Below are positions 5,417-55,925 of a stretch of 64,000 nt of DNA, piece after piece; the first letter of the stretch is position 1, and every line of letters starts with the position of its first letter. The position numbers and the translations under genes are program-made. The notes below the pieces were generated by a model. It searched no databases. It saw only the letters and a program-made list of their open reading frames with translations, and was not told the DNA's origin. The stretch is from an uncultured Syntrophomonadaceae bacterium (GTDB lineage: Bacteria > Bacillota > Dethiobacteria > DTU022), in NCBI GenBank assembly GCA_964420065.1, contig CAYQQK010000007.1, forward strand, positions 5,462 to 69,461, read 5' to 3'.

Positions 5417-8400
5417 TGGGCACTACTTACTACCCCCGGCCGGAAATCCTGGCCGGGGCTACGCACCGGTCGGGGCACATGGTGATCGAGGCGTCGGCCG
5501 GTACCGGCAAAACTTTTACCCTCGAGCACCTCGTGCTCGATCTGATCATCGGCAGGCAGGCCGGGATCGAGCAGATCCTTGTCGTTACTTTTACCGATGC
5601 GGCCACGCATGAATTGCGCGAGCGCATCCGAACCTTGATCCGGGCTGTCTGCGATTCCGGTGTAGGGGAGCTGGAATCCGGTGCGGATAGCAGTCGCTAC
5701 TGGGAGATCAACCGGGCTACCCGGGGCCGCTTGCGCGAAGCCCTGTTTCGTTTTGATGGGGCCGCGATCGCGACGATTCACGGTTTTTGTCAGCGCATTC
5801 TGTCCGAACAGGCGTTTCTTGGGGGGCGATTGTTCCGGCAAGAACATGCGCATGGTCGGGAAATGTTCGGGCAGGCTTTTCGGGAGGAGGTCCGCCGGAC
5901 CCTGGGTCAAGAAAACCCGGCCGGAGCCGCTCTACGGCGCTGGATCGATCAGGAACGTTCCCTGCAAAAAGTTCAGGATTTGCTTTACCGCTGCCATCGG
6001 GAGGGCTGCCCGGAACGTTGCCCGGTGACCCCGCAGTGCGACCCGGAGGGGTTTCTTGATGCCATGGGCAGGCTACCCCGTCTGGAAGCATTGTTGCACG
6101 CAGCAGAAGATTACTTCGCGGATCGCCATTCCAGGCGGGGTTATCAAAAGCTGTTTCGCGGCCTGTTTGCTCTTGCCGGCATGATCGAGTCCGGTCCGGC
6201 TCTCTTTGAAACGGTGCCGCCGTTCCTGGAATGGGTGGTCGAAGATTGCGGGATCAACTCGGTTCAACAAACCCGGTTGAACCACGTTCATTGTGCCGCG
6301 GCGAGCGCCGGGGCGCCGCCGGAATTCAAGGCACTGGCTGCCTGCCTCGATCGAATGATCTTGCGGGCGGTTTCCGAGCCTGCTTGTTTTATCCACCGGT
6401 TGCTGCCGCGTGTGCAGGCGCGCCTCGACCTGCGCAAACGTGCTCTTGGTTTGATTGATTACGATGACATGCTCCTCGGGGTTCGGGAAGCGTTGGCGGG
6501 CGAAAATGCCCCGGTCCTGCTTGATGTGCTCAGGAGACGCTGGAAGTATGCCCTGGTTGATGAATTTCAGGATACAGATCCGGTTCAGTGGGAAATTTTC
6601 AGGCGGATTTTTGTCGACGGTGCAGGGGAACAGCGCCTTTTCATTATCGGTGACCCCAAACAGGCCATTTACGGCTTTCGAGGCGCAGATGTTCATACCT
6701 ACCGCACGGCCCGGGATCACCTGCTGACGAAACAGGGGACCGTCCGGTTGCCGCTGATCAAAAACTACCGATCCACCCCGGCGCTGATCCAAGCGGTGAA
6801 CGCAATTCTGACCGCAGCGGACGGCACCGGATCCGGTTTCTTTGACGGTCCCAACCGTTACGATCTACCGGTGCAGTGTGGTGACACCACCCGGGGCGCC
6901 ATCGAAAACGGGAAAGCGGCGGTCCCGGTGCATCTGGTCCATCTTTACGGTGTCGGGGCCCCCTTGAAGGCCGCTCTGCTCAGGCGGGGTCTGGCCAACT
7001 TTATTGCCCAGGAAATACAACGCTTGACGGATCCGCAAACCGGTCTGGCCACGATGCGGCGCGGGGGGGCGCCCGTGCCGGTCAAGCACAGCGATATTTA
7101 TATTCTCACCCGTTCCGGCTGGGAAGGTCGCCGGATCGGTGCGGTCCTGCGCCGTTACGGCATTCCCCATGCCTTCTACAAATTGGACGGTCTTTTTGCC
7201 ACCGACGAAGCCCGGGATATCCACCGTTTGCTCCTGGCGATCGACGCGCCGCAGGATCCTTCATTACGGATGGCGGCCTGGTTGACCCCCTTCTTTGGGG
7301 TGCCGCTGGAGGATCTGCCGCGTTGGCAGGATGCCGCTGCGCACCATCCGTTACCGGCGCGGTTGCTGCGTTGGAACCGGCTTGCCGCCGCCCGGGAGTG
7401 GGCCCGTCTCTTTGATGATATCCTGAACACATCCGGCCTGATCCGGCGTCTTATTTTCGCCGGCGGCGAGCGCGAGCTGACCAACTATATTCACCTGTTT
7501 GAGCTGCTCCTGGCCGAAGTGTATACCCACCCGATTTCGGTGACTGAATTGGCCCGTGGGCTCAAAGCACGCATCGACGGCCGGGATATGCCCGAGGGGC
7601 GTGAGGGGGACCTGCAACGGCTGGAGACGGAAAAGGATGCGGTGCAAATTTTAACCATGCACAAGGCCAAGGGTCTTGAGGCGGAAGTGGTTTTTGTTGG
7701 GGGAGGGTTCAGCAACCCGCCCGGCGATCCCCTCCAGGTTAACATTTACCACCGCAACCGCCGGCGCTGCCTGCACCTCGGCCGGGCCGGCGGGGAGATC
7801 GCTGCGGCGATCGAGGCGGAAACACGCCAGGAAAACCAGCGCCTGGCCTATGTGGCTCTGACCCGGGCCGGCGCGCGGCTTTACCTGCCTTATTTTGGCC
7901 CGGCCCCCGCCGGTTGCAACGCGGATGATAAAAGTTTCGTTTTTTGTAAACTCGGGGACTTTTACCGGCCCTTGCAAAAACAGCTTGATCGTTTGTGCGA
8001 TCAGGGGCGGCTCGGTGTCGGGCAGCTTTTTATGCGGCGCGAAGCACCGTGCCGGGTACGTTTCCCGCATGAACGCAGTGTCCCGTCCGGTCCGGAAGAT
8101 TGGCTGGGAAAATACCTGCCCTGGGAACCTCCGACCAAAACGGCCGAAGCCGTAAAGATTAAAACACGGCGCCGGGGGGTGATCCTGACCAGTTATACCC
8201 GGATCAAACAGGGGCGGGGCTGGCAGCCTTTCGACTCCGGCGAAGACGGGGGAGGTGACCGGCGCAATGAAGAGGTGGCCGGTGAGGTTTCGGACGCTCT
8301 TGTCCTTCCGGACCCGGGTTCAATTGAACCGGCCGCCCCGGAAAATTTCCCCGGGTTGCCCGGCGGCCGGGAAAACGGTATATTTTTACATGCTCTCCTC

Positions 8401-37404: not shown

Positions 37405-37481
37405 GGAGCTGTGGTGTAGTTGGTTAACATACCGGCCTGTCAAGCCGGAGACCGCGGGTTCAAGCCCCGTCAGCTCCGCCA
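37405..37481 (+). tRNA. tRNA-Asp(GTC)
   Basis: GGAGCTG/CAGCTCC acceptor, CCGGC-CTGTCAA-GCCGG anticodon arm, CCA. Confidence 0.97.
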
Positions 37482-37483
37482 TC

Positions 37484-37559
<76 letters not shown>

Positions 37560-37564
37560 TTCGG

Positions 37565-37639
37565 GCGGAAGTGGCTCAGTGGTAGAGCATCGCCTTGCCA
37601 AGGCGAGGGCCGCGGGTTCGAATCCCGTCTTCCGCTCCA
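37565..37639 (+). tRNA. tRNA-Gly(GCC)
   Basis: GCGGAAG acceptor, TCGCC-TTGCCAA-GGCGA, CCA. Confidence 0.97.
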
Positions 37640-37647
37640 TTTTTTAT

Positions 37648-37722
37648 GGCGACATAGCCAAGTGGTAAGGCAGAGGACTGCAAATCCTCGATTCCCCGGT
37701 TCAAATCCGGGTGTCGCCTCCA
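37648..37722 (+). tRNA. tRNA-Cys(GCA)
   Basis: GGCGACA acceptor, GAGGA-CTGCAAA-TCCTC, CCA. Confidence 0.97.
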
Positions 37723-37732
37723 TTTTTTTTTT

Positions 37733-37823
37733 GCCGGGATGGCGGAACAGGCAGACGCAAGGGACTTAAAATCCCTCGGGTACACACTTACCCGTACCGG
37801 TTCGATTCCGGTTCCCGGCACCA
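37733..37823 (+). tRNA. tRNA-Leu(TAA)
   Basis: GCCGGGA acceptor, AGGGA-CTTAAAA-TCCCT, long variable arm, CCA. Confidence 0.97.
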
Positions 37824-46306: not shown

Positions 46307-47236
46307 TTGAAAAATCTTTTATTCCGGTTGCTGATGGCTGGATTGTCCTTGTGGCTGATTGTTTCAATCACTTTCGCTTTGATGCACCTGATCCCGGGAG
46401 GGCCGTTTCAACGCGAAAGGGCGGTCCCGCCGGCGATCGAGGCCTGCCTTGAAGCTCGTTACAGGCTCGATCAACCGCTCGCGGTACAGTACCGGGATTA
46501 CCTTTGCTGCCTGTTCCGGGGAGACCTGGGGCCTTCCTTTCGATACAGGGGTCGTACGGTCAACGCGATCATTGCGAGCACGTTTCCGATCTCCGCCCGG
46601 CTGGGTCTGGTTGCGCTGGCGATTGTGCTGCTGACGGGGATCCCCGCCGGTATTGCCGCCGCCGTGCATCACCGGAAATGGCCCGATCACCTGGTAATGC
46701 TGGGGAGCACGATTGCTGCAGCCGTGCCCGGTTTCATTCTGGCAACCGTGTTGCTTTATTTTTTCGCCTACCGCTGGCGGCTGTTGCCGCCGGCGTTGTG
46801 GGGCACAGCAAAGCACGTGCTCATGCCGGCCGCCGCCCTGGCGGCCTTTCCTGCCGCTTCCGTCGCCCGCCTGACCAGAGCCAATCTGATCGAAGTTCTA
46901 TCCCGGGATTACATCCTGGCTGCCCGGGCGAAAGGATTGCGGCCCGGCCGGATCATCCTGGTTCATGGTTTAAAGAACGCATTGATTCCGGTTATCGCTT
47001 TTTTGGGACCGCTCGCGGCCATGTTGCTGACCGGCAGCTTTATTATTGAAAACATTTTCGCGATCCCGGGCCTGGGTCGTCATTTTGTGACCAGCATTTA
47101 CAACCGCGACTATACCGTGATCGCCGGGGTAACCGTTTTTTATAGCCTGCTCTTGATTGCCCTGAATTTGCTGGCGGATACCGTCCATGCCCTGCTTGAT
47201 CCGCGGATCAGGTTCCGGCACGGGGAGCCGGTCTGA
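46307..47236 (+). CDS. oppB: Peptide ABC transporter permease
   Basis: LIPGGPF, LDQPL..QY..YL, GDLGPSF, ARLTR, DYILAARAKGL, HGLKNALIPV, IENIFAIPGLG; TTG 46307 after GGAGG. Confidence 0.93.
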   Translation: MKNLLFRLLMAGLSLWLIVSITFALMHLIPGGPFQRERAVPPAIEACLEARYRLDQPLAVQYRDYLCCLFRGDLGPSFRYRGRTVNAIIASTFPISARLGLVALAIVLLTGIPAGIAAAVHHRKWPDHLVMLGSTIAAAVPGFILATVLLYFFAYRWRLLPPALWGTAKHVLMPAAALAAFPAASVARLTRANLIEVLSRDYILAARAKGLRPGRIILVHGLKNALIPVIAFLGPLAAMLLTGSFIIENIFAIPGLGRHFVTSIYNRDYTVIAGVTVFYSLLLIALNLLADTVHALLDPRIRFRHGEPV

Positions 47237-47237
47237 C

Positions 47238-48176
47238 ATGCCCTTTGATGCCCGCCTCTTTCAGCCGCTGCAGACTGCATCCGGTGCAAGCCCGCAGTCA
47301 TTGCCGGTTGCCCCCCGGCAGCGGACCTGGCAGCGGTTGAAAAAAAAACCGGCAGCCATGGCCGGTTTGGTGATAATCTCCATTTTGGTCCTGGCGTCTT
47401 TGCTCGGGCCGTTGCTTTCTCCGTACACCTATTCTCACCAGGATCTTGGCATAACACTGCAGGGGCCAAGCCGGGAGCACTGGTTTGGCACCGATTACCT
47501 GGGCCGGGATCTGTTTGTTCGAACCATGTCCGGGGCGCGTGTTTCCCTATCGATTGGTCTGGTTGCCGCTTTTTCGGCAACGATCATCGGTGTCATTTAC
47601 GGGGGTATGGCCGGGTTGGCCGGGGGATGGCTGGATTTTGCCTTGATGCGCCTGGTGGACATCATCCATGGCATCCCTTTTTTGCTCTGGGTCATTTTGC
47701 TGATCGTTATTTTACGGGAATCGTTTCTTTTTACCGGCGGTCCGGGGCCGGGCCCGGCCGGACTTTACATTGCCCTGGGCCTGGTTTTCTGGTTGCCGAT
47801 GGCCAGGCAGGTGCGGGCACAGGTTCGGAGCTTGAAGGAAAAGGAATTTATTTTGGCGGCGCGCGTTACCGGGGTTTCCCGGGGACGCTTGCTGCGGCGA
47901 CATTTGTTGCCCAACTGCCTCGGTACGATCGTGATCAACGCGCTCCTCACCATCCCCGAGGCTATTTTTGCCGAGGCGTGGCTCAGTTTTGCCGGCTTGG
48001 GTGTGTCCGCTCCCCGAGCCAGCTGGGGGGTACTGGCCGGCGATGCCGTGATCTATTTGAAAACGGCGCCGCACCTGCTCTTTTTCCCCGCCGTTTTGAT
48101 CTGCCTGACCCTGCTCGCTTTTAATTACCTGGGCGAGGGTTTGCGTGAGGCCTTGAATCCGCAAACCGGCCGGTGA
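47238..48176 (+). CDS. oppC: Peptide ABC transporter permease
   Basis: HWFGTDYLGRDL, GARVSL, ARQVRAQ, EFILAA, HLLPN, EAWLSFAGLG, FNYLGEGLR. Confidence 0.93.
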   Translation: MPFDARLFQPLQTASGASPQSLPVAPRQRTWQRLKKKPAAMAGLVIISILVLASLLGPLLSPYTYSHQDLGITLQGPSREHWFGTDYLGRDLFVRTMSGARVSLSIGLVAAFSATIIGVIYGGMAGLAGGWLDFALMRLVDIIHGIPFLLWVILLIVILRESFLFTGGPGPGPAGLYIALGLVFWLPMARQVRAQVRSLKEKEFILAARVTGVSRGRLLRRHLLPNCLGTIVINALLTIPEAIFAEAWLSFAGLGVSAPRASWGVLAGDAVIYLKTAPHLLFFPAVLICLTLLAFNYLGEGLREALNPQTGR

Positions 48177-48197
48177 GCCCGTAAGGGATGGTGAACC

Positions 48198-49193
48198 GTG
48201 GGTGCCTTGCTCGCAGTCAATCGGGTCGAAGTCCAATTCGAAACGCCGGCCGGTGTGCTCAGGGCGGTCCGCGGGGTTAGCTTTACCCTGGAGCCCGGCG
48301 AGGTGCTGGCTATCGTGGGAGAATCGGGTGGCGGCAAAAGTGTAATCGCCCGTTCGATCATGCGTCTGATCCCGGATCCGCCCGGTCAAATTACCGGCGG
48401 CTCGATCCGGTTTGACGGGGAGGAGCTCCTTCATAAAACCGAAAAGCAGATGCAAAAGATCCGGGGCAATAGCATCGGTATGGTTTTCCAGGATCCTTTC
48501 AGTCATCTCAACCCGGTTTTGACCATCGGGACGCAGCTCACGGAAGGTATGCGCCTGCATCGGGCTTTGACTGCCGGTCGTGCCCGGCGCAGGGCCGTCG
48601 CACTGCTGAGCCGGGTAGGCCTTCCGGAGCCGGAACGATGTTTGAAACTGTACCCGCACCAGTGCAGCGGAGGGATGCGCCAACGGATCATGATCGCCAT
48701 GGCGCTTGCCTGCAATCCAAAACTGATCCTGGCCGATGAACCCACCAGTGCTCTGGACGTAACCATCCAGGCCCAGGTTCTGGAGATTTTCCGGCAAATC
48801 AGGGAGGAACGCCGCACCGCCATGATCCTGATCACCCACGACCTGGGAGTGGTCGCAGGCCTGGCTGACCGGGTCCTGGTGCTGTATGCCGGCTGGGCGA
48901 TTGAAACCGGCCCGGTCGAGGCTGTTCTGACCGGCCCGCTGCACCCGTACACGCGGGGGTTACTGCATTCTGTACCGGGCTTGGACATGGGGCCGGAAAA
49001 AAGGTTGGTTCCTGTTCGGGGCCGCCCGCCGGATCCGGTCCTGCAACCGGCGGGACAATGTCCTTTTTTACCCCGCTGTGATTATGCGCGGCAGATCTGT
49101 TCCCGGGTCTTACCTCCATTTTTCCGGAAAAATAGTCTGCACCGGGTCCGTTGCTGGCTGCAACACCCTTTGGCGCCTCATGAACATGAGTAA
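48198..49193 (+). CDS. oppD: Peptide ABC transporter ATP-binding protein
   Basis: GESGGGKS, MVFQDP, YPHQCSGGMRQR, ADEPTSALD, ITHDL, HPYTRGL, CPFLPRC. Confidence 0.93.
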   Translation: MGALLAVNRVEVQFETPAGVLRAVRGVSFTLEPGEVLAIVGESGGGKSVIARSIMRLIPDPPGQITGGSIRFDGEELLHKTEKQMQKIRGNSIGMVFQDPFSHLNPVLTIGTQLTEGMRLHRALTAGRARRRAVALLSRVGLPEPERCLKLYPHQCSGGMRQRIMIAMALACNPKLILADEPTSALDVTIQAQVLEIFRQIREERRTAMILITHDLGVVAGLADRVLVLYAGWAIETGPVEAVLTGPLHPYTRGLLHSVPGLDMGPEKRLVPVRGRPPDPVLQPAGQCPFLPRCDYARQICSRVLPPFFRKNSLHRVRCWLQHPLAPHEHE

Positions 49194-50193
49194 GCGTTCT
49201 TTTTCGCCCGGTGGCGGCAAAGGGATTCTAGACGTGCGCGATATGGCCAAACATTTTCCCCTGCAGGGCGGCATTTTGACCGGCCGGTCTTTCGCCAGAG
49301 CGGTGGACGGGGTTTCGTTTACGATCCGGGCCGGGGAAACACTGGGGCTGGTCGGGGAAAGCGGTTGCGGGAAAACTACCGCCGGGCGCACTGCAATCGG
49401 GCTCTACCGGCCGACCCGTGGGAAAGTATATTTCAAGGGAAGCAATCTGTTTGCTGCCCCAAAAAGCGTACGAACCCTTTTGCGGCGGCAGATGCAAATG
49501 GTTTTTCAGGACCCCTCTGCCGCTTTGAATCCCTGCTTGACGGTGGAGGAAAGCGTGGGAGAGCCCTTGCAGATCTACCGTCTGACTGCCGGGAAAAAGG
49601 AGAGGCGGGAGCGGGTGCGTGATCTGTTACACCTGGTGGGGCTAAACCCCGGGCTCATGCACCGCTACCCGCACCAATGCAGCGGAGGCGAGTGCCAGCG
49701 GATCGGTATTGCCCGCGCCCTGGCCGGTGAACCGGAATTTATCGTTTTTGATGAACCGGTAGCGGCGGTAGATGTCTCGGTTCAGGCTCAGATTATTGAT
49801 AAACTGGAAGGGTTGCAGAATCTGTTCAACCTCTCATATCTGTTTATCTCCCACAATATTGCCCTGGTTTGCTACATCGCGGACCGGGTGGCGGTGATGT
49901 ATCTGGGTAAAATAATGGAGATCAATTACAGCGGCCGGCTCGGCCGTCCGCCGCTTCACCCCTATACCGAAGCCCTTCTTGCGGCTGTTCCCGTTGCCGA
50001 CCCCCGGGTTGAGCGCCGGCGGAAGCAACACCTCCTTGCCGGAGAAGTGCCGGGTTCGATCCACCCGCCCGCCGGTTGCCGTTTTCACAACCGCTGTAAA
50101 AGGGTTCAGCCCCGCTGCCGTTTCGAAGAGCCTGCACTGGTGGAACTGCAACGCGATCACTGGGTTGCCTGCCACCACTATCCCCCGCCCTAA
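49180..50193 (+). CDS. oppF: Peptide ABC transporter ATP-binding protein
   Basis: AVDGVSF, GESGCGKT, YPHQCSGGECQR, DEPVAAVD, ISHN, HPYTEALL, GCRFHNRC, VACH. Confidence 0.93.
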   Translation: MNMSKRSFSPGGGKGILDVRDMAKHFPLQGGILTGRSFARAVDGVSFTIRAGETLGLVGESGCGKTTAGRTAIGLYRPTRGKVYFKGSNLFAAPKSVRTLLRRQMQMVFQDPSAALNPCLTVEESVGEPLQIYRLTAGKKERRERVRDLLHLVGLNPGLMHRYPHQCSGGECQRIGIARALAGEPEFIVFDEPVAAVDVSVQAQIIDKLEGLQNLFNLSYLFISHNIALVCYIADRVAVMYLGKIMEINYSGRLGRPPLHPYTEALLAAVPVADPRVERRRKQHLLAGEVPGSIHPPAGCRFHNRCKRVQPRCRFEEPALVELQRDHWVACHHYPPP

Positions 50194-50202
50194 AAAGAGT
50201 CC

Positions 50203-50754
50203 TCAGGAGCACTTTGTCCTTTCCCGGGCAGGAACTTGCATCCCCTCCTGGATGAAAAGGAGCAGCCCGGCGGCCAGGGCAATATCACCCAGGCTGATTA
50301 CTTTGTGCTTGCCGTAGGGCAAGCGTAAAGTATCAGCCAGGAAGACCAGACGGGTTTCCCCATCCAGGGGGGCATGGACCGGGCTGGCGCTGCCGCTCAG
50401 CAGCTCTTCCCGGTACGGGGATTTGAGGCGGTTCGGGTCCACCGGCATCCGCCCGCCATTGAAACCGATCACCGCCAGGTTCATCACCAGGCCCAGACAG
50501 AACAGGCTCATGCCCCGGTGGCGCCGGTTCAGGAAAATAAAGACAAGCAGGAGCAGGTAGGAGAAGAGGTGCAAAAAAGGGGTCAGAGCAATGAGGTAAC
50601 GAAGGGTATAGAAATCCACCCACAGTGTTGCCTGCAAGAGCAATGCCCCTGCAGCCAGCCAAAAACCGGTTAGGTTGACCTTGTTCAAATGTCTGAAACG
50701 TCCCCGCCGTATCCAGCCGGTGAGAATCCCTATAAGAGCTGCTTCAGGAAACAC
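50203..50754 (-). CDS. DUF5317-family membrane protein
   Basis: Multi-TM protein with GLVMNLAVIGFNGGRMPV, H...D..TRLVFLAD, VISLGD; starts 4 nt after the HD-GYP stop. Confidence 0.8.
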   Translation of the reverse strand: MFPEAALIGILTGWIRRGRFRHLNKVNLTGFWLAAGALLLQATLWVDFYTLRYLIALTPFLHLFSYLLLLVFIFLNRRHRGMSLFCLGLVMNLAVIGFNGGRMPVDPNRLKSPYREELLSGSASPVHAPLDGETRLVFLADTLRLPYGKHKVISLGDIALAAGLLLFIQEGMQVPARERTKCS

Positions 50755-50758
50755 CAGG

Positions 50759-52135
50759 TTAGTCTTCCTTCCGTGTTTTATCTTTTCCCCCGCCGGTTAG
50801 GCCCGACTCCGGTGTTGTTTCCCGGACCAGACAGCTTTCCATTGTTGCGGCGGCTTCTTTTGTAAAAAGAGTGGCACTCTTTCTATTAAAAAAGGTCGTG
50901 GCCAGGTGGGGAAAGAGTTTTTCAAAGGCTTTCACTACCTTTGGGTCAAACTGGCTGCCCGCTCCAGATCGGATCTCCTCCAGGGCTTCAAGGGGCGGAA
51001 GGGCTTTGCGGTATGGGCGGTCGCTGATCATGGCATCAAACGAGTCGGCTATCGCCAGGATACGGGAACCCAAAGGAATGCTTTCCCCTTTCAAGCCGGA
51101 CGGATAGCCGGTGCCGTCCCAACGTTCGTGGTGGTGGCGGATGATGGCGGCGCCGTCCTGAAAGAAAGTAATGTTTTTGATCACATCACTGCCGATGGGG
51201 GCATGTTGTTCCATCTCTTGCAGTTCGGTGGGGGTAAGCTTTCCCGGCTTTTTGAGAATTGCTTCCGGGATGGCTACCTTGCCCACATCATGAATCATGG
51301 CGACGTACTGAAACAGGTTCACCCGGTCTTCCGCCCATTTCATCTGCCGGGCCAGTGCCACGGCCAGTTTTGCCACCCGTGCCGAATGGCCCCGGGTGTA
51401 GGGATCCTTGGCGTCGATGACTTTTGACAGGCTCATCATGGTATCCAGGAACGCTCGTCGCATATCCATATAGGATTGGAAAGAGTGGCGGGCCAAAACC
51501 AGGGGGACCAGGAAAAGGACGAGGCCCCAAAAACCGATATGAACATAGATCAAGGAAACCAGAATACCCAGCGGGGCCATACTCAGAAAGTTGGGGGTAG
51601 CCCACTTGACGTTGGTCAACCAGATCGAATATGGATTTTCGTGGTAGATGATTGCCAGGACAACGGTAAACATCGAACTGTTTGCGATAAAACAAAACAG
51701 CAGGGACGCCAGTACGGCCAGCAAATAACGCTCCGAGATAACCAGCCCGTTCGGATTGATCAGGCGAAATATGGCGGCCGATAACCCGGAGGTAAGCGTG
51801 AGTTGCGCGGCATTAAAAATATATTGAGAGCGACTACGTCCCTTGCGCAATGAGAAAAAATCTCCGGCGACGGTAATCAACACCACCAGAAAAGGCTGGA
51901 AAAGAAGGATCGAGGCAAACATGGAGGCAAAACTGACCGAAACAACACCACCCCGGGGCAGAGTAACCGGGTAACAGTCGGTAAGGAAAGATAAAAAAAG
52001 AAAAATACCCACTGAAAACCAATGGACCTCGTTCCAATCCGTCTTCAGGAACAGGCATGTGGCTGTGATCAACGCGAGGACAACCAAGAAAGCGATATAA
52101 ACCCTGGCTCTTAAAGGCAGTTTCAATTGTTCCAT
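50759..52135 (-). CDS. Membrane-sensor HD-GYP cyclic-dinucleotide phosphodiesterase
   Basis: About 7-8 N-terminal TM segments; IDAKDPYTRGHSARV, HDVGK, HHHERWDGTGYP, AIADSFDAMISDRPYR all intact. Confidence 0.92.
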   Translation of the reverse strand: MEQLKLPLRARVYIAFLVVLALITATCLFLKTDWNEVHWFSVGIFLFLSFLTDCYPVTLPRGGVVSVSFASMFASILLFQPFLVVLITVAGDFFSLRKGRSRSQYIFNAAQLTLTSGLSAAIFRLINPNGLVISERYLLAVLASLLFCFIANSSMFTVVLAIIYHENPYSIWLTNVKWATPNFLSMAPLGILVSLIYVHIGFWGLVLFLVPLVLARHSFQSYMDMRRAFLDTMMSLSKVIDAKDPYTRGHSARVAKLAVALARQMKWAEDRVNLFQYVAMIHDVGKVAIPEAILKKPGKLTPTELQEMEQHAPIGSDVIKNITFFQDGAAIIRHHHERWDGTGYPSGLKGESIPLGSRILAIADSFDAMISDRPYRKALPPLEALEEIRSGAGSQFDPKVVKAFEKLFPHLATTFFNRKSATLFTKEAAATMESCLVRETTPESGLTGGGKDKTRKED

Positions 52136-52186
52136 TATTTTACCCCGTAGTTAACATGGAATGAAGCCGGCGGATGGAGGGTTAAC

Positions 52187-52264
52187 TTACCACTTGAAAA
52201 GGGCCCCTCCGGCAAGGATCAGGGCTGCAAGGGCAACAAGAACTTTCAGGACAGTAAGCCTCAC
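52187..52264 (-). CDS. 25-aa hydrophobic peptide MRLTVLKVLVALAALILAGGALFKW (putative signalling-peptide precursor)
   Basis: Not in the ORF track; GTG at 52264 preceded by perfect SD AGGAGGT (52278-52272) with 7-nt spacing; TAA at 52189-52187; 51 nt upstream of the HD-GYP ATG. Confidence 0.8.
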   Translation of the reverse strand: MRLTVLKVLVALAALILAGGALFKW

Positions 52265-52557
52265 GGTTTTTACCTCCTCTGCACTGTCCTCAGCAGCTTT
52301 CCGCTAAGGGCCGCCGGTATGCGCTCCGCTCTTGTGTCCGCTCGTTTTAAAGATGAAAGCATCTGTGCAATTTCCTTACCGCCGGCTTCAATTTTAAGAT
52401 CTGTTCCAGGTAGTAAACAGGTTTGCTCATTTTTCCCTACACTCACCTTTACTGGGAAAGATGGGGTGGTGGGGTTACTTCTCCTCCTTTGAAAGTAACA
52501 AGATGATGATCTATTTCCTTTCCTTAAAAATAAAACGGGTTATCGGCAGGCAAGGGG

Positions 52558-53268
52558 CTATTTATGGTCAATCACGGCCAACCTGCGGTTCATTGCATCC
52601 AGAGTGGCTTTGGCGGTGGCTTCAAGCGGGTCTCCCTTGTCCAGAGCCGTTCCCAACAGTATTTCTTCCCGGTCACCTAGATGATGTGATACGAACACGA
52701 CAATGATTTCCTGTCCCGAGAGATTGATCTGGTGCACGGCGTCGGCATTCAAGTTTTTGGAGATACATTGTCCATTTATAACCGCATCCAGCGTAGCCCG
52801 GGCGACCAGATGGAGACGGTTGCGGCTGGTGTTGGGGCCGGAGGCTGTGCCTTTGAACCGGTCGTTGCCCAGGGCGATGGTGGTAAAGACATCGATTTCC
52901 TGTCTGCCGGCAACACAGCCTATTTCAACCAGCTTGAAACGTGGGAGGGACCGGGCAATCTGTTTTTCCTTCCGGTCAAGCTGAGCAATGCTGATGCATT
53001 TATGATCGATCGGCAAACCCAACTTGACCAGGATCGCCGATTCGATATCCCGTACAACTTGTTTCGGGGAACGGCTGGAGTCGGCCAGAACATGGATTTC
53101 GACGATCTCCCGATCTTTGCAAACTACCCGGGACGACAGTACACCCTGGACCTGGGCAATGATATTTTCAATACTTCTGTCCGGTTGCTCGGGCTGGCCT
53201 GAAATCGCATTATCCTCCCTTAACCCATTATAACCTTTGATGACAGGTTTGTCCAAATATTGGTGCAA
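52558..53268 (-). CDS. Conserved-looking hypothetical protein with possible LeuA-regulatory-like C-terminal repeats
   Basis: N-terminal VQGVLSSRVV...IVEIHVLA...RSPKQVVRDIESA...IDHKCISIAQL; two similar helices GTASG...LVARATLDAV and GTALDKGDPLEATAKATLDAMNR. Confidence 0.8.
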   Translation of the reverse strand: MHQYLDKPVIKGYNGLREDNAISGQPEQPDRSIENIIAQVQGVLSSRVVCKDREIVEIHVLADSSRSPKQVVRDIESAILVKLGLPIDHKCISIAQLDRKEKQIARSLPRFKLVEIGCVAGRQEIDVFTTIALGNDRFKGTASGPNTSRNRLHLVARATLDAVINGQCISKNLNADAVHQINLSGQEIIVVFVSHHLGDREEILLGTALDKGDPLEATAKATLDAMNRRLAVIDHK

Positions 53269-53342: not shown

Positions 53343-55562
53343 TCAGCACTCACTGAAACCGCACGCTTCACACTTTAAACAGCCTTCGGCTCGAATCAAG
53401 GCGGCGGTGCCGCAATCGGGACAGATCTCGGTGCACGATAGGTTGTTGCTTTCAATTCCGGCATCATCGACCCGGGCCAGTTCCTTCAAGGCCCGTCCGA
53501 TGGCATCGGGGACGCTCATGATCCGGTTCGGACCGAAGCCGACCGAACGAGCGCCGCCGATTCCCGTCAATTGCGCCACGATTTCATCCACGCTCACCCC
53601 GCAGCGCAGGGCCAGGGAAACCAGTCGTGCCACCGCTTCGGTGAAGGCGACGACATCACTGCCGGCTTTGCCGATCTGCGCGAACAGTTCGAACGGTTTT
53701 CCGGCGACGGTGTTTACGGTGACAAAAAGGTTACCCAGGGCGGTGTGGACACTGGTGGTATTACCGACAAGCGTTTTCGGCCGTTTGGTCGGCTTGAGAT
53801 CGTCCTGGGCCGGACCCGTTCCGGTATGAAGGACCTGTTGCTGGCGGGAACCGTCCCGGTAGATCGTAATCCCCTTGCAGCCCGCCCTCCAGGCGGAAAG
53901 ATAGGCTTCCCGGACCTCTTCCGGGGCGGCTTCGTGGCGCAAGTTGATCGTTTTGCTGACGGCATTATCGGTATACTTTTGAAATGCAGCCTGATGGCGG
54001 ATATGCCAGGAAAGATCGATTTCAAGGGCGGTTTTGAACAGTTGCCGCGTTTTTTCGGGAAGCGGTATTTCTTCGGGCAGGCGGCCGGTTTTGGCGATGG
54101 CCCGGATCAGTGTTTCACTGTAAAGCCCTTCCTTTCGGGCTATTTCGAGAAAAACCGGGTTCACTTCGGGCAGGTCGATCCCCCCGAGAATATTCCGGCG
54201 GACAAAGGCGAGGCTGAAATAGGGTTCGATGCCGCTGCTGGCTCCGGCGAGGATGGAAATGGTGCCGGTCGGAGCGATGGTGGTACAGGTGGCGTTACGC
54301 ACGCGATCTTCCGGCCGCCCGGTGTCGTAGATGCTGCCCGGAAAAGCAGGGAAAACGCCCCGTTCTTCAGCCAGAGAGACCGATTCTCGCCGGGCCTCCG
54401 CACTGATGTATCCCATTATTTTTTCGGCCATGACCAGAGCTTCTTCGCTGTCGTAAGGGAGCCCAAGACGGACGAGGAGGTCATGCCAGCCCATCACGCC
54501 GAGGCCGATTTTCCGATTGCCAAATTTGTGCATCCGGGCGATCTCGTCGATAACATAGCTACTGGCATCAATGGCGTTATCAAGAAAGCGTACTGCGGTG
54601 TGCACCACCCGGCCGAGTTTGTCCCAGTCGACGGCGCCTTCGGGCGTGAAAAATTTGCCGAGATTGATCGATCCGAGGCAGCAGGCCTCGAAGGGCAGGA
54701 GGGGTTGTTCACCGCAAGGGTTGGTCGTTTCAAAACGTCCCCGGTGCGGGGTCGGGTTGGCTTCATTCATCCGGTCAATAAAAATAATGCCGGGATCCCC
54801 TTTGGACCATGCTTTTTCGACCATCAAGTCAAACACTTCACCGGCATCAAGCCGCGACGGCCGGTCAGCGAAGGGGTCCCGGTAAGGAAGGCCGGTACGC
54901 GGATTGATCAGGTCGTAGAAGGGATCGGGTTCTTCACCGGTGGCTTTACGCATAAATTCATCCGAGACGGAGACGGAAAGGTTGAAATTGGTGATCTCCT
55001 CTTCCTTTTCTTTGCAGCAGATAAATTCGATTATATTCGGATGGTTGTAGATCAGAGAACCCATGTTGGCCCCCCGGCGGGTGCCGCCCTGCTTGACCGC
55101 TTCGGTGGCGGCGTCGAAAATTTTCAAAAAAGAAAGCGGGCCGCTGGCCACCCCGTTGGTGGAACAGACAGTATCCCCGCTCGGTCTGAGGCGGTCAAAA
55201 GCAAATCCGGTGCCGCCGCCGGTTTTTTGAACCAGGGCCATCTGTTTAAGGGTTGTGAAAATGCCCTCCATGCTGTCTTCGATCGGGAGGACGAAGCAGG
55301 CGCTAAGCTGTTGCAGTTCCCGTCCGGCGTTCATTAAAGTGGGTGAGTTGGGCAGAAAGAGCGCATCGGCCATGATCCGGTAAAATTCCTTTTCCATTTC
55401 CCGTTCCGCCGTTTCATCTTTACCGTATTCGGTTTCCACAGCCGCAATATTTTTGGCGACGCGGTGTAAAAGATCGGCCGGGGTTTCTAGCGGTCGCCCC
55501 TTTTCGTCTTTCTTCAGGTATCTTTTTTCGTAGGTAATGCGGGCGTTTTCGGAAATATTCAA
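53343..55562 (-). CDS. nrdJ: Adenosylcobalamin-dependent (class II) ribonucleotide reductase
   Basis: FLPNSPTLMNAG, QLSACFVL, GGGTG, TTNPCGEQPL, RKIGLGVMG, TIAPTGTIS, DNAVSKTIN, KGITIYRDGSR, C-terminal TSCPD-like domain and CPDC...CEAC ribbon; TTG 55562 after GGAGGAG. Confidence 0.93.
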   Translation of the reverse strand: MNISENARITYEKRYLKKDEKGRPLETPADLLHRVAKNIAAVETEYGKDETAEREMEKEFYRIMADALFLPNSPTLMNAGRELQQLSACFVLPIEDSMEGIFTTLKQMALVQKTGGGTGFAFDRLRPSGDTVCSTNGVASGPLSFLKIFDAATEAVKQGGTRRGANMGSLIYNHPNIIEFICCKEKEEEITNFNLSVSVSDEFMRKATGEEPDPFYDLINPRTGLPYRDPFADRPSRLDAGEVFDLMVEKAWSKGDPGIIFIDRMNEANPTPHRGRFETTNPCGEQPLLPFEACCLGSINLGKFFTPEGAVDWDKLGRVVHTAVRFLDNAIDASSYVIDEIARMHKFGNRKIGLGVMGWHDLLVRLGLPYDSEEALVMAEKIMGYISAEARRESVSLAEERGVFPAFPGSIYDTGRPEDRVRNATCTTIAPTGTISILAGASSGIEPYFSLAFVRRNILGGIDLPEVNPVFLEIARKEGLYSETLIRAIAKTGRLPEEIPLPEKTRQLFKTALEIDLSWHIRHQAAFQKYTDNAVSKTINLRHEAAPEEVREAYLSAWRAGCKGITIYRDGSRQQQVLHTGTGPAQDDLKPTKRPKTLVGNTTSVHTALGNLFVTVNTVAGKPFELFAQIGKAGSDVVAFTEAVARLVSLALRCGVSVDEIVAQLTGIGGARSVGFGPNRIMSVPDAIGRALKELARVDDAGIESNNLSCTEICPDCGTAALIRAEGCLKCEACGFSEC

Positions 55563-55925
55563 AGCAGCTCCTCCCTGTCCCTGTGATCTATTTTTTACGG
55601 CGGGCGCCTGGCCGGGGATCAATCTACTACAACCGGCTCCAGGTCACATTGTAACATTTTCATTCATGGATGAACATACCATGGCGTCGTTTCGGTTTCA
55701 GGGGCGGTCCGGACGGCAGGATACGGCAAATAGCAACAGATTTCAAGGAAATTTTTGATCGGGGTGGGAAGCCCCAATTTACGGCAGGGACGTTTTTCTG
55801 CCACTACTGCTCTTTTCAGCGCCGTTCCCCTCTTTTTTTCTCGAAACAGAACTGCTATAATGAGCAACAGGATTGAAAGGCTTGGTTTGGGCCCTGCCCG
55901 CAGCAGAAGTAAAGGAGGAGACGAT

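Follow-up and report, generated by a model that had tools for sequence, protein, structure and literature searches.

A widespread, uncharacterised gene module, probably for membrane signalling, that joins HD-GYP phosphodiesterases to a conserved mini-protein, DUF5317 and a structured RNA leader

MgrB and SafA (which work with PhoQ), PmrR, MgtS, AcrZ, KdpF and CydX are small proteins of fewer than 50 amino acids (aa), each with a positively charged N-terminus and one transmembrane (TM) helix. Small proteins of the MgrB type carry packing motifs of small residues, are often left unannotated and are encoded together with or near their partner. A comparable arrangement was found at positions 50,203 to 53,268 of a 64,000-nucleotide (nt) stretch of DNA (hereafter the window) belonging to contig CAYQQK010000007.1 of an uncultured Syntrophomonadaceae bacterium, where four minus-strand open reading frames (ORFs) lie head to tail and encode a hypothetical protein (hyp236), a mini-protein of 25 codons, an HD-GYP phosphodiesterase with a MASE9 domain and a DUF5317 protein (Table 1). 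It represents a single instance of a membrane signalling module that is widespread and has not been characterised. In size, charge, TM helix, packing motif and adjacency to its partner the mini-protein resembles the MgrB-type regulators; none of these, however, is linked to HD-GYP or DUF5317, whereas the mini-protein family, known here from sequence, spans at least five phyla and possesses its own structured leader and a candidate RNA-binding protein. The reading tentatively favoured here, with a confidence somewhat short of even, is that the intact single-pass mini-protein packs on DUF5317, and possibly on the MASE9 domain, and so tunes the HD-GYP enzyme, its own synthesis being set by hyp236 acting on the leader.

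Both elements of this logic, a small membrane protein beside a membrane signalling enzyme and a translational operator made of repeated motifs, have precedents, while neither the components nor their combination turned up in the family libraries and the literature searched. We know of no established input for the membrane-sensor HD-GYP enzymes, which form a common class. The module gives such enzymes three fixed partners, namely a mostly uncalled mini-protein, DUF5317 and the unmodelled hyp236 family (∼3,900 clusters), and adds a cis-regulatory RNA candidate, itself new, along with the protein that probably binds it; every link can be tested directly, which opens the inputs of membrane HD-GYP phosphodiesterases to experiment.

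The locus had earlier been read, in what is called here the original prediction, as a quorum-type system in which DUF5317, acting like signal peptidase II (LspA), would cleave the small peptide to release a short ...FKW signal sensed by the membrane domain of the HD-GYP enzyme. Its description of the locus was confirmed in the sequence: the gene order, strand and coordinates, the distance of 4 nt between the HD-GYP stop codon and DUF5317, and the unannotated 25-aa ORF with a strong Shine-Dalgarno (SD) sequence, GAGGAGG, before a GTG start. The likeness to the SHP/Rgg, ComS/ComR, Agr and Phr/Rap systems of Gram-positive bacteria is also apparent, in that a short, unannotated ORF, whose product begins with basic residues and continues with a hydrophobic body, stands beside candidate genes for processing or sensing. 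The module, however, lacks Rgg/RNPP, AgrBC, Eep, PptAB and C39-ABC proteins, the C-terminus of the mini-protein is not hypervariable, the sensor of the output enzyme is not constant, and the family extends beyond the Firmicutes.

The module was followed in two sets of loci. An alignment of six DUF5317 sequences, used to scan a single genome for each species, yielded 46 DUF5317-anchored loci, and a hyp236-anchored metagenome scan contributed 80 further loci, 40 of them with at least 3 kb of downstream sequence. The peptide profile detected a mini-protein homologue (24–47 aa) beside DUF5317 in 36 of the 46 loci of the first set, which come from four phyla (Bacillota, Chloroflexota, Actinomycetota and Deinococcota, with Meiothermus among the carriers), and five of the ten loci without it break off at the position where the gene is expected. 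The mini-protein is also present in three loci fetched via hyp236 homologues, and Armatimonadota was added by the hyp236-anchored locus L049, whose phylum is taken from the source name of its hyp236 protein. Cultured carriers include Meiothermus luteus and strains of Desulfitobacterium and Thermovenabulum. Among the 40 metagenome loci the mini-protein is encoded in 35, an HD-GYP enzyme in 37, DUF5317 in 33 and all three in 33, and the order hyp236, small ORF, one or two HD-GYP genes, DUF5317 is likewise seen in 33. The expectation that homologous loci would hold a conserved peptide ORF was thereby borne out in both sets.

Searches of related loci with the window proteins showed that in Bacillota hyp236 is followed by a gap of 230–300 nt, the MASE9-HD-GYP gene and DUF5317. 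In Chloroflexales DUF5317 comes first and hyp236 after it, and in Anaerolineae and Caldilineae the mini-protein gene immediately precedes DUF5317. The module is self-contained, since the flanking genes are unrelated between loci and only hyp236, HD-GYP and DUF5317 recur beside the mini-protein. This recurring gene arrangement is far beyond chance, and the mini-protein and DUF5317 genes usually share a transcript with one HD-GYP phosphodiesterase gene or two. DUF5317 is the tightest and constant genomic partner of the mini-protein, this being the strongest linkage in the module, so that the association of the two genes claimed in the original prediction stands; it fits a direct interaction between peptide and DUF5317. 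The closest relative of the locus, L001 (80% identity), has an assembly gap at the MASE9 part and the peptide position and is hence uninformative; L001 and L051 share the contig prefix FZPS01 and represent two copies of the module in one assembly.

The coding status of the small ORF was assessed from its substitution pattern. In every Firmicute-type gap between hyp236 and the HD-GYP gene an ORF of 24–26 aa lies behind a strong SD sequence (e.g., MKGSILKVLLALASLLLAGGAFFTWG and MSKLVKVITAIVTLVVAGGAAFKI), and a strong SD at the proper spacing is present in all homologous loci. Differences between 30 nearest-neighbour ORF pairs are distributed over codon positions 1, 2 and 3 as 125, 58 and 252, and the ORFs of L022 and L028, when read by eye, are separated by eight synonymous changes and one Val-to-Ile replacement. 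In a collection of 15 billion proteins no family members shorter than 29 aa were found, and the longer ones are called only “hypothetical”. Given the third-position excess, the synonymous changes and the gaps in the protein collection, the 25-codon ORF is, on comparative sequence grounds, a real, conserved and translated gene. It is most improbable that the ORF is untranslated and merely open by chance within a structured non-coding leader or small RNA; the ORF does lie inside a structured RNA closed by a helix (P1, see below), but that reading would leave unexplained the strong excess of third-position substitutions, the rightly spaced SD of every locus and an amino-acid pattern kept across phyla despite unrelated nucleotide sequences.

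The 86 distinct members that were profiled measure 24–37 aa (median 26), and one further member (L023) reaches 47 aa. The family follows a layout of a basic N-terminus, a TM helix of ∼18 residues, a Gly-Ala pair and an aromatic residue one turn later. When the 86 sequences are aligned on Gly-Ala, positions −8, −5 and −3 prefer Leu and position −1 a small residue; Gly occupies position 0 in all but one (partly a result of the anchoring) and Ala position +1 in 81. In Firmicute-type loci an aromatic residue is favoured at +3, a polar or basic one at +4 and Trp or Ile at +5. The part beyond Gly-Ala comprises 2–10 residues; in Anaerolineae and Caldilineae it is rich in Pro and Gly and has no Trp. 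The conserved positions fall on one helical face, with an i, i+3/4 spacing along the hydrophobic segment, which matches the prediction of helix-helix packing. With fewer than 50 aa, a single TM segment and selection acting on the protein, the family shares these features with small membrane-protein regulators. A divergent, longer mini-protein (MKYWLTMLLLLVVWATTYGAKLEIYPPPKPPPPPSASY), missed by the peptide profile, was noticed behind leaders that match the covariance model described below, in L105 (∼950–1000) and L113 (2488–2604).

The DUF5317 protein of the window matches PF17248 with 122.1 bits (cut-off 25 bits) over model positions 1–151. In an alignment of 15 sequences the motifs N92, N99-G-G-x-M-P-V105, L139-A-D141 and S154-x-G-D157 are invariant or nearly so, the invariant residues being N92, N99, G101, M103, P104, T134, D141, S154, G156 and D157. 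The AlphaFold2 model (pLDDT 87.4, pTM 0.81) consists of five TM helices with a 55-residue loop, containing short strands, between TM4 and TM5. The conserved residues gather at one membrane boundary, formed by the end of TM4, the TM4-TM5 loop (which holds D141) and the start of TM5 (which holds D157). The original prediction had placed the motifs within membrane segments; the motifs themselves were confirmed, but in the model they are located at a membrane boundary, predicted to be the extracytoplasmic one, and not deep in the membrane. The extracytoplasmic orientation of this face is predicted by the positive-inside rule, and the Gly-Ala and aromatic end of the mini-protein should lie on the same side of the membrane. 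Under the favoured reading the mini-protein would insert with its N-terminus in and C-terminus out, bringing its conserved end to the side of the conserved DUF5317 face, and the small-residue face of its intact helix would pack onto DUF5317 and perhaps also onto the MASE9 domain. The mini-protein could act there as a stoichiometric subunit or as a regulator that tunes the hydrolysis of cyclic di-GMP (c-di-GMP) or a related cyclic dinucleotide.

The same geometry may be explained in another way, with the mini-protein as a precursor and DUF5317 as a novel membrane-boundary or intramembrane hydrolase that cuts near Gly-Ala, the tail or the stub then controlling the HD-GYP enzyme. Such cleavage is considered rather unlikely. 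It would account for the signal-peptide-like layout of the mini-protein, which follows the n-h-c order of substrates of LspA (peptidase family A8) and ends in a lipobox-like L-[AS]-[AG]-G-A, as well as for the presence of D141 and D157, together with invariant Asn, Thr and Ser, at the boundary where the peptide Gly-Ala is expected; LspA, too, has two invariant Asp near the outer boundary, to which those of DUF5317 may correspond, and the SxGD helix of DUF5317 locally resembles the NxAD helix of LspA. However, the lipobox Cys is absent from the mini-protein, and DUF5317 differs from LspA in its five TM helices, the order of its motifs and the lack of a fold match. A Foldseek search of the DUF5317 model against the Protein Data Bank (PDB) gave no match (best E 2.4, NarI), with no LspA entry among the matches and no fold of the presenilin/FlaK, prepilin peptidase, other solved-protease or transporter-like kind, and the DUF5317 profile retrieved nothing from PDB sequences at E ≤ 10. 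Comparison by hhalign with E. coli LspA, the sequence of which was entered by hand, gave a probability of 5.3% over 29 columns, and the sole aligned part was the SLGD helix of DUF5317 with the catalytic NLAD helix of LspA. The motif of DUF5317 is SxGD, with Ser invariant in the place of Gly, which sets the protein apart from the GxGD intramembrane aspartyl proteases. An LspA-like processing protease, as originally proposed, is not supported by these searches.

Genomic features bear on cleavage as well. In addition to the tight adjacency of the peptide and DUF5317 genes, the mini-protein gene occurs two or three times in tandem directly upstream of DUF5317 in L013 (∼5530–5927), L039 (5410–5760) and L045 (1333–1546), and the U-tract that often follows P1 would yield peptide mRNA in excess over enzyme mRNA. 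In three Limnocylindria-type loci of one clade, DUF5317 forms the C-terminal part of a fusion with an MFS_1/MFS_3 transporter, i.e., of the exporter type, giving proteins of 673–769 aa (L031 4495–6516, L038 4126–6435, L042 4399–6423), with the HD-GYP gene upstream and the mini-protein gene downstream. Against cleavage stand the conserved residues, which keep to a single face of the helix over the entire TM segment, as for packing, and the tail itself, which at 2–10 residues is short, constant in pattern in Firmicute-type loci and differently composed in other clades. Such a tail, undiversified and in Anaerolineae and Caldilineae devoid of the Trp, does not agree with a released ...FKW signal. 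Type I signal peptidase is blocked by Pro at +1. It was rejected as a general processing route, as Pro immediately follows Gly-Ala in 10 of the 86 members.

The HD-GYP enzyme was recognised by Pfam through its catalytic domain (HD_5, 1.2e-42) and through MASE9 (PF20972), which matched residues 14–216 with 37.1 bits (cut-off 24.3 bits), so that an intact enzyme with a multi-TM input domain, as first described, is indeed present. Its catalytic motifs, HD (IHDVGK), HHERWDGTGYP (HHHERWDGTGYP) and D (ADSFDAM), are intact and align with those of V-cGAP3 and PmGH, on account of which the enzyme looks active. The closest solved structures are those of the cyclic GMP-AMP (cGAMP)-specific V-cGAP3 (5z7c, 5.7e-49) and then the c-di-GMP enzyme PmGH (4mcw), and the putative substrate is c-di-GMP or 3'3'-cGAMP. 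T. maritima TM1467 and S. venezuelae HdgA and HdgB share the MASE9-HD-GYP architecture of the window enzyme, and tandem HD-GYP genes reminiscent of hdgA-hdgB, the second being shorter, occur in 10 of the 40 hyp236-anchored loci (L048, L049, L070, L072, L078, L086 and others). In the MASE9 paper HdgA is the sole experimentally characterised member named, and the Streptomyces hdgA and hdgB deletion mutants are described as having no developmental phenotype (bioRxiv 10.1101/2021.11.05.467447, PMC6205966). The passages of these sources on MASE9 and hdgA/hdgB do not mention the mini-protein, DUF5317, hyp236 or the leader as partners (10.1101/2021.11.05.467447, PMC6205966).

The input domain of the enzyme is not a fixed component of the module. 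In Anaerolineae the inputs of the linked HD-GYP proteins are PAS-GAF or GGDEF domains, or are missing altogether, which speaks against peptide sensing by the HD-GYP membrane domain as a general design and, more broadly, against a cleavage product acting through it. The locus also lacks any exporter, receptor or protease of the known pheromone systems, another point against cleavage for signalling and against a quorum-type system. The quorum design does not follow, since no protease-like fold was found, the tail is short and undiversified, the inputs vary, exporter and receptor are absent and control appears to be intracellular. What remains of the original reading is the gene set and the link between peptide and DUF5317; the secreted-signal design found no support.

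The intracellular control is suggested by a structured RNA leader on the mini-protein mRNA, which, like its link to hyp236, the original prediction had missed. Upstream of the SD there are three copies of AGCGGA or AGCGAA (AGCGRA), two of them 5' of a helix termed P2 and one in the loop of a hairpin termed P3. One side of P2 is the spacer that separates the SD from the start codon, and a third helix, P1, encloses both the leader and the ORF by pairing a segment ∼100 nt upstream of the SD with sequence 7–50 nt past the stop codon. Within P1 the order is AGCGRAGCG, the 5' strand of P2, the P3 hairpin with the loop (Y)UAGCGRA, (C)AGAG and a spacer, the SD, the 3' strand of P2 and the start codon. 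The 241-nt element of the window folds with −91.3 kcal/mol (z = −2.9) with P1 in the minimum-free-energy structure, and P1 was recovered by RNAalifold with compensatory changes. When the ungapped best helix between leader and post-stop sequence was scored against 100 shuffles per locus, it beat all 100 in 46 of 79 hyp236-type loci and reached p ≤ 0.05 in 60. The arm sequences of P1 differ widely between loci; the control of cognate against non-cognate arms is weakened by related loci sharing arm sequences, and the folding of P1 modestly favours the sense strand (35 loci versus 20, p = 0.016).

A covariance model built on 15 compact leaders gave 53 matches at E ≤ 1, all on the gene strand and just upstream of a mini-protein start. 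In the resulting alignment 93.6% of cells are paired, compared with at most 46% when the partners are slid, and 130 cells show double changes, compared with at most 36; compensatory changes are found in 6 of 6 P3 pairs and 6 of 8 P2 pairs, and 96.5% of P3 cells are paired. A search of Rfam 15 returned no relevant match at E ≤ 10 for the window region nor at E ≤ 1 for six related loci. Judged by this covariation, the predicted structured leader is conserved in the hyp236-carrying lineages. The nine bases past the 3' arm of P1 contain on average 4.6 T (2.2 expected), with at least five T in 31 of 58 loci and four in the window. In Chloroflexales the 5' arm of P1 is preceded by a promoter-like TTGCAA-17-TACTAT (a by-eye reading) and the 3' arm is followed by a canonical terminator, and the element there looks like a separate transcript with paired ends, estimated at ∼250 nt.

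Operators bound by CsrA (GGA), TRAP ((G/U)AG) and HutP (UAG) are comparable to the leader in having several copies of a short motif in the 5' leader, one of them in a hairpin loop, and a structure abutting the SD; the motif of the leader, AGCGRA, and the fold of hyp236 are different, however, and binding by hyp236 is putative. CsrA itself was discarded as the binder of the leader, given that AGCGRA deviates from the A(N)GGA consensus and half of the copies are AGCGAA. The helix between leader and post-stop sequence on a short, probably highly expressed gene recalls the pairing of 5'- and 3'-untranslated regions in B. subtilis hbs, but the element of most Firmicute-type loci lies within an operon, P1 often has a U-tract behind it, and the role may be in stability, processing or attenuation.

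The candidate partner of this RNA, hyp236, has no match in Pfam, NCBIfam or PADLOC, and Rfam, NCBIfam, PADLOC and PDB sequence profiles yielded nothing for hyp236, DUF5317, the peptide or the leader. Its family comprises 3,872 clusters at 50% identity, almost all of the best 150 members listed being 200–240 aa long. In the AlphaFold2 model (pLDDT 88.7) an alpha-beta-beta-alpha-beta domain is followed by two beta-beta-beta-alpha units; the best Foldseek matches of the model are to the LeuA regulatory domain (E 3.6e-6) and to the tandem double-stranded RNA-binding domains of MLE, TRBP and DCL3 (E ∼1e-4). Among 38 peptide-bearing loci, at least two AGCGRA copies within 150 nt upstream of the peptide are found in 19 of the 21 with hyp236 and in none of the 17 without it; the opposite strand carries no copies, and 0.08 per 150 nt is the background rate. 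AGCGRA repeat clusters number 98 in 1.75 Mb, of which 66 lie upstream of catalogued mini-protein genes and ∼10 more were attributed, by their position, to leaders of uncatalogued copies; in the 64 kb of the window there is one three-copy cluster (52300–52342).

Because it co-occurs with the leader, hyp236 is probably the RNA-binding regulator of this element, a candidacy with which the modelled fold agrees. Binding of hyp236 to the AGCGRA repeats would set the translation or the stability of the mini-protein mRNA and, where a U-tract follows P1, may in addition determine how much transcription reads through into the genes for HD-GYP and DUF5317. Taken with its connection to hyp236, the leader suggests that the mini-protein is controlled inside the cell and after transcription. 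A second GCGGAGCGGA was observed in L049 (∼6040–6050), past the terminator that ends the mini-protein transcript and ahead of the first HD-GYP gene; the factor that acts on the leader may also act on the HD-GYP mRNA of that locus.

The LeuA-like fold of hyp236 and the second motif just upstream of an HD-GYP gene in L049 would also be expected if DUF5317 and the mini-protein formed a membrane unit for ligand binding or transport, the expression or activity of which HD-GYP and hyp236 adjust to the level of a cyclic dinucleotide, with hyp236 as a sensor of a ligand or c-di-GMP on the leader. The MFS-DUF5317 fusions, which hint at a transported substrate, and the association with HD-GYP whatever the sensor domain of the enzyme, are in line with this proposal as well. 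It is nevertheless regarded as improbable, for Foldseek found no transporter-like fold for DUF5317 in the PDB, the MFS fusion is limited to one clade and no candidate ligand is known.

Several observations weigh against the favoured reading of an intact mini-protein controlled through its leader by hyp236. Four of them are typical of a substrate peptide: the tandem mini-protein genes of L013, L039 and L045, the terminator-like U-tract past P1 in about half of the loci, the MFS-DUF5317 fusions and the two invariant Asp of DUF5317. With the pseudo-lipobox, these features keep cleavage by DUF5317 alive. As to the RNA, the covariation was counted on an alignment fitted to the covariance model and leans to the structure of that model; the leader of the window itself matches the model weakly (17.9 bits, E 0.6), and its P2 has at best 4 bp, although its P3 is clear (52310–52316 with 52291–52297). 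The association of hyp236 with the leader has a Fisher p of 1e-8 without correction for phylogeny, and the modelled fold of hyp236 is equally compatible with a ligand-binding role (e.g., for a cyclic dinucleotide), with or without RNA binding.

A bolder combination was considered, in which hyp236, as a new RNA-binding family, reads the AGCGRA repeats of a new structured leader and thereby meters a mini-protein that is the dedicated substrate of DUF5317, a new class of membrane-boundary hydrolase, with the cleavage product (tail or membrane stub) switching the HD-GYP enzyme. As a complete circuit this is judged improbable; if true, it would wire peptide processing directly to cyclic-dinucleotide turnover across phyla. 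Literature searches found no paper on DUF5317 and PF17248 and nothing relevant on HD-GYP enzymes with small proteins.

Table 1. Features of the module in the window (positions refer to the 64,000-nt stretch)
Feature	Position	Strand	Remarks
hyp236 (236-aa hypothetical protein)	52558–53268	minus	Longest ORF; predicted cytoplasmic, two-domain, candidate RNA-binding regulator
Sigma-70-like promoter candidate of the operon, TGGACA-17-TATAAT	53227–53255	minus	11 of 12 consensus matches; consensus match alone
P1 5' arm, UGAAGCCGGCGG	52379–52390	minus	Perfect pairing with 52162–52173; in minimum-free-energy fold
AGCGGA repeat 1	52337–52342	minus	Member of the sole three-repeat cluster of the window
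AGCGGA repeat 2, AGCGGAGCG core	52325–52330	minus	Sequence and covariance-model alignment
P3 hairpin, CGGCGGC/GCUGCUG	52291–52316	minus	Loop is AGCGGA repeat 3 (52300–52305); conserved GAG after the hairpin
SD of mini-protein gene, GAGGAGG	52273–52279	minus	Direct sequence reading
Mini-protein gene, 25 aa, MRLTVLKVLVALAALILAGGALFKW	52187–52264	minus	GTG start; predicted single-pass N-in/C-out membrane protein
P1 3' arm, CCGCCGGCUUCA	52162–52173	minus	Begins 13 nt past the mini-protein stop codon
MASE9-HD-GYP phosphodiesterase, 458 aa	50759–52135	minus	∼8 TM segments and intact catalytic domain; Pfam HD_5, HD, MASE9
DUF5317, 183 aa	50203–50754	minus	5 TM segments; start 4 nt past the HD-GYP stop; Pfam PF17248

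The start of hyp236 is ambiguous, as the promoter-like site lies inside the 5' end of its longest ORF and the homologues start ∼20–30 residues later. A GGGAGG at ∼53207–53212 (minus strand) is followed by an out-of-frame ATG (28-aa ORF, 53124–53210), with no ATG, GTG or TTG in frame. Between the hyp236 stop codon and the 5' arm of P1 the window contains ∼165 nt more than its relatives (52393–52557, minus strand), and an orphan AAAGGAGGAG without an ORF behind it is situated inside this extra stretch.

Two longer ORFs that overlap the leader, 52270–52446 and 52347–52430, were rejected as genes, having no SD and being open only in close relatives. In these relatives one frame runs across the AGCGGA repeats without a stop and reads ...KRAER... 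(window 52270–52446, minus strand; L002 4408–4521; L004 4086–4193; L006 1300–1413); it ends 2–5 nt before the start of the mini-protein and in L006 overlaps that start. The frame is probably a by-product of the RNA motif and, less probably, a coupled upstream ORF.

Downstream of the module, and convergent on it, lie the genes of an Opp-type ABC transporter (47187–50193, plus strand). Upstream, a class II ribonucleotide reductase with a C-terminal TSCPD domain is encoded at 53343–55622 (minus strand), and a cluster of five tRNA genes is found elsewhere in the window (37405–37820, plus strand).

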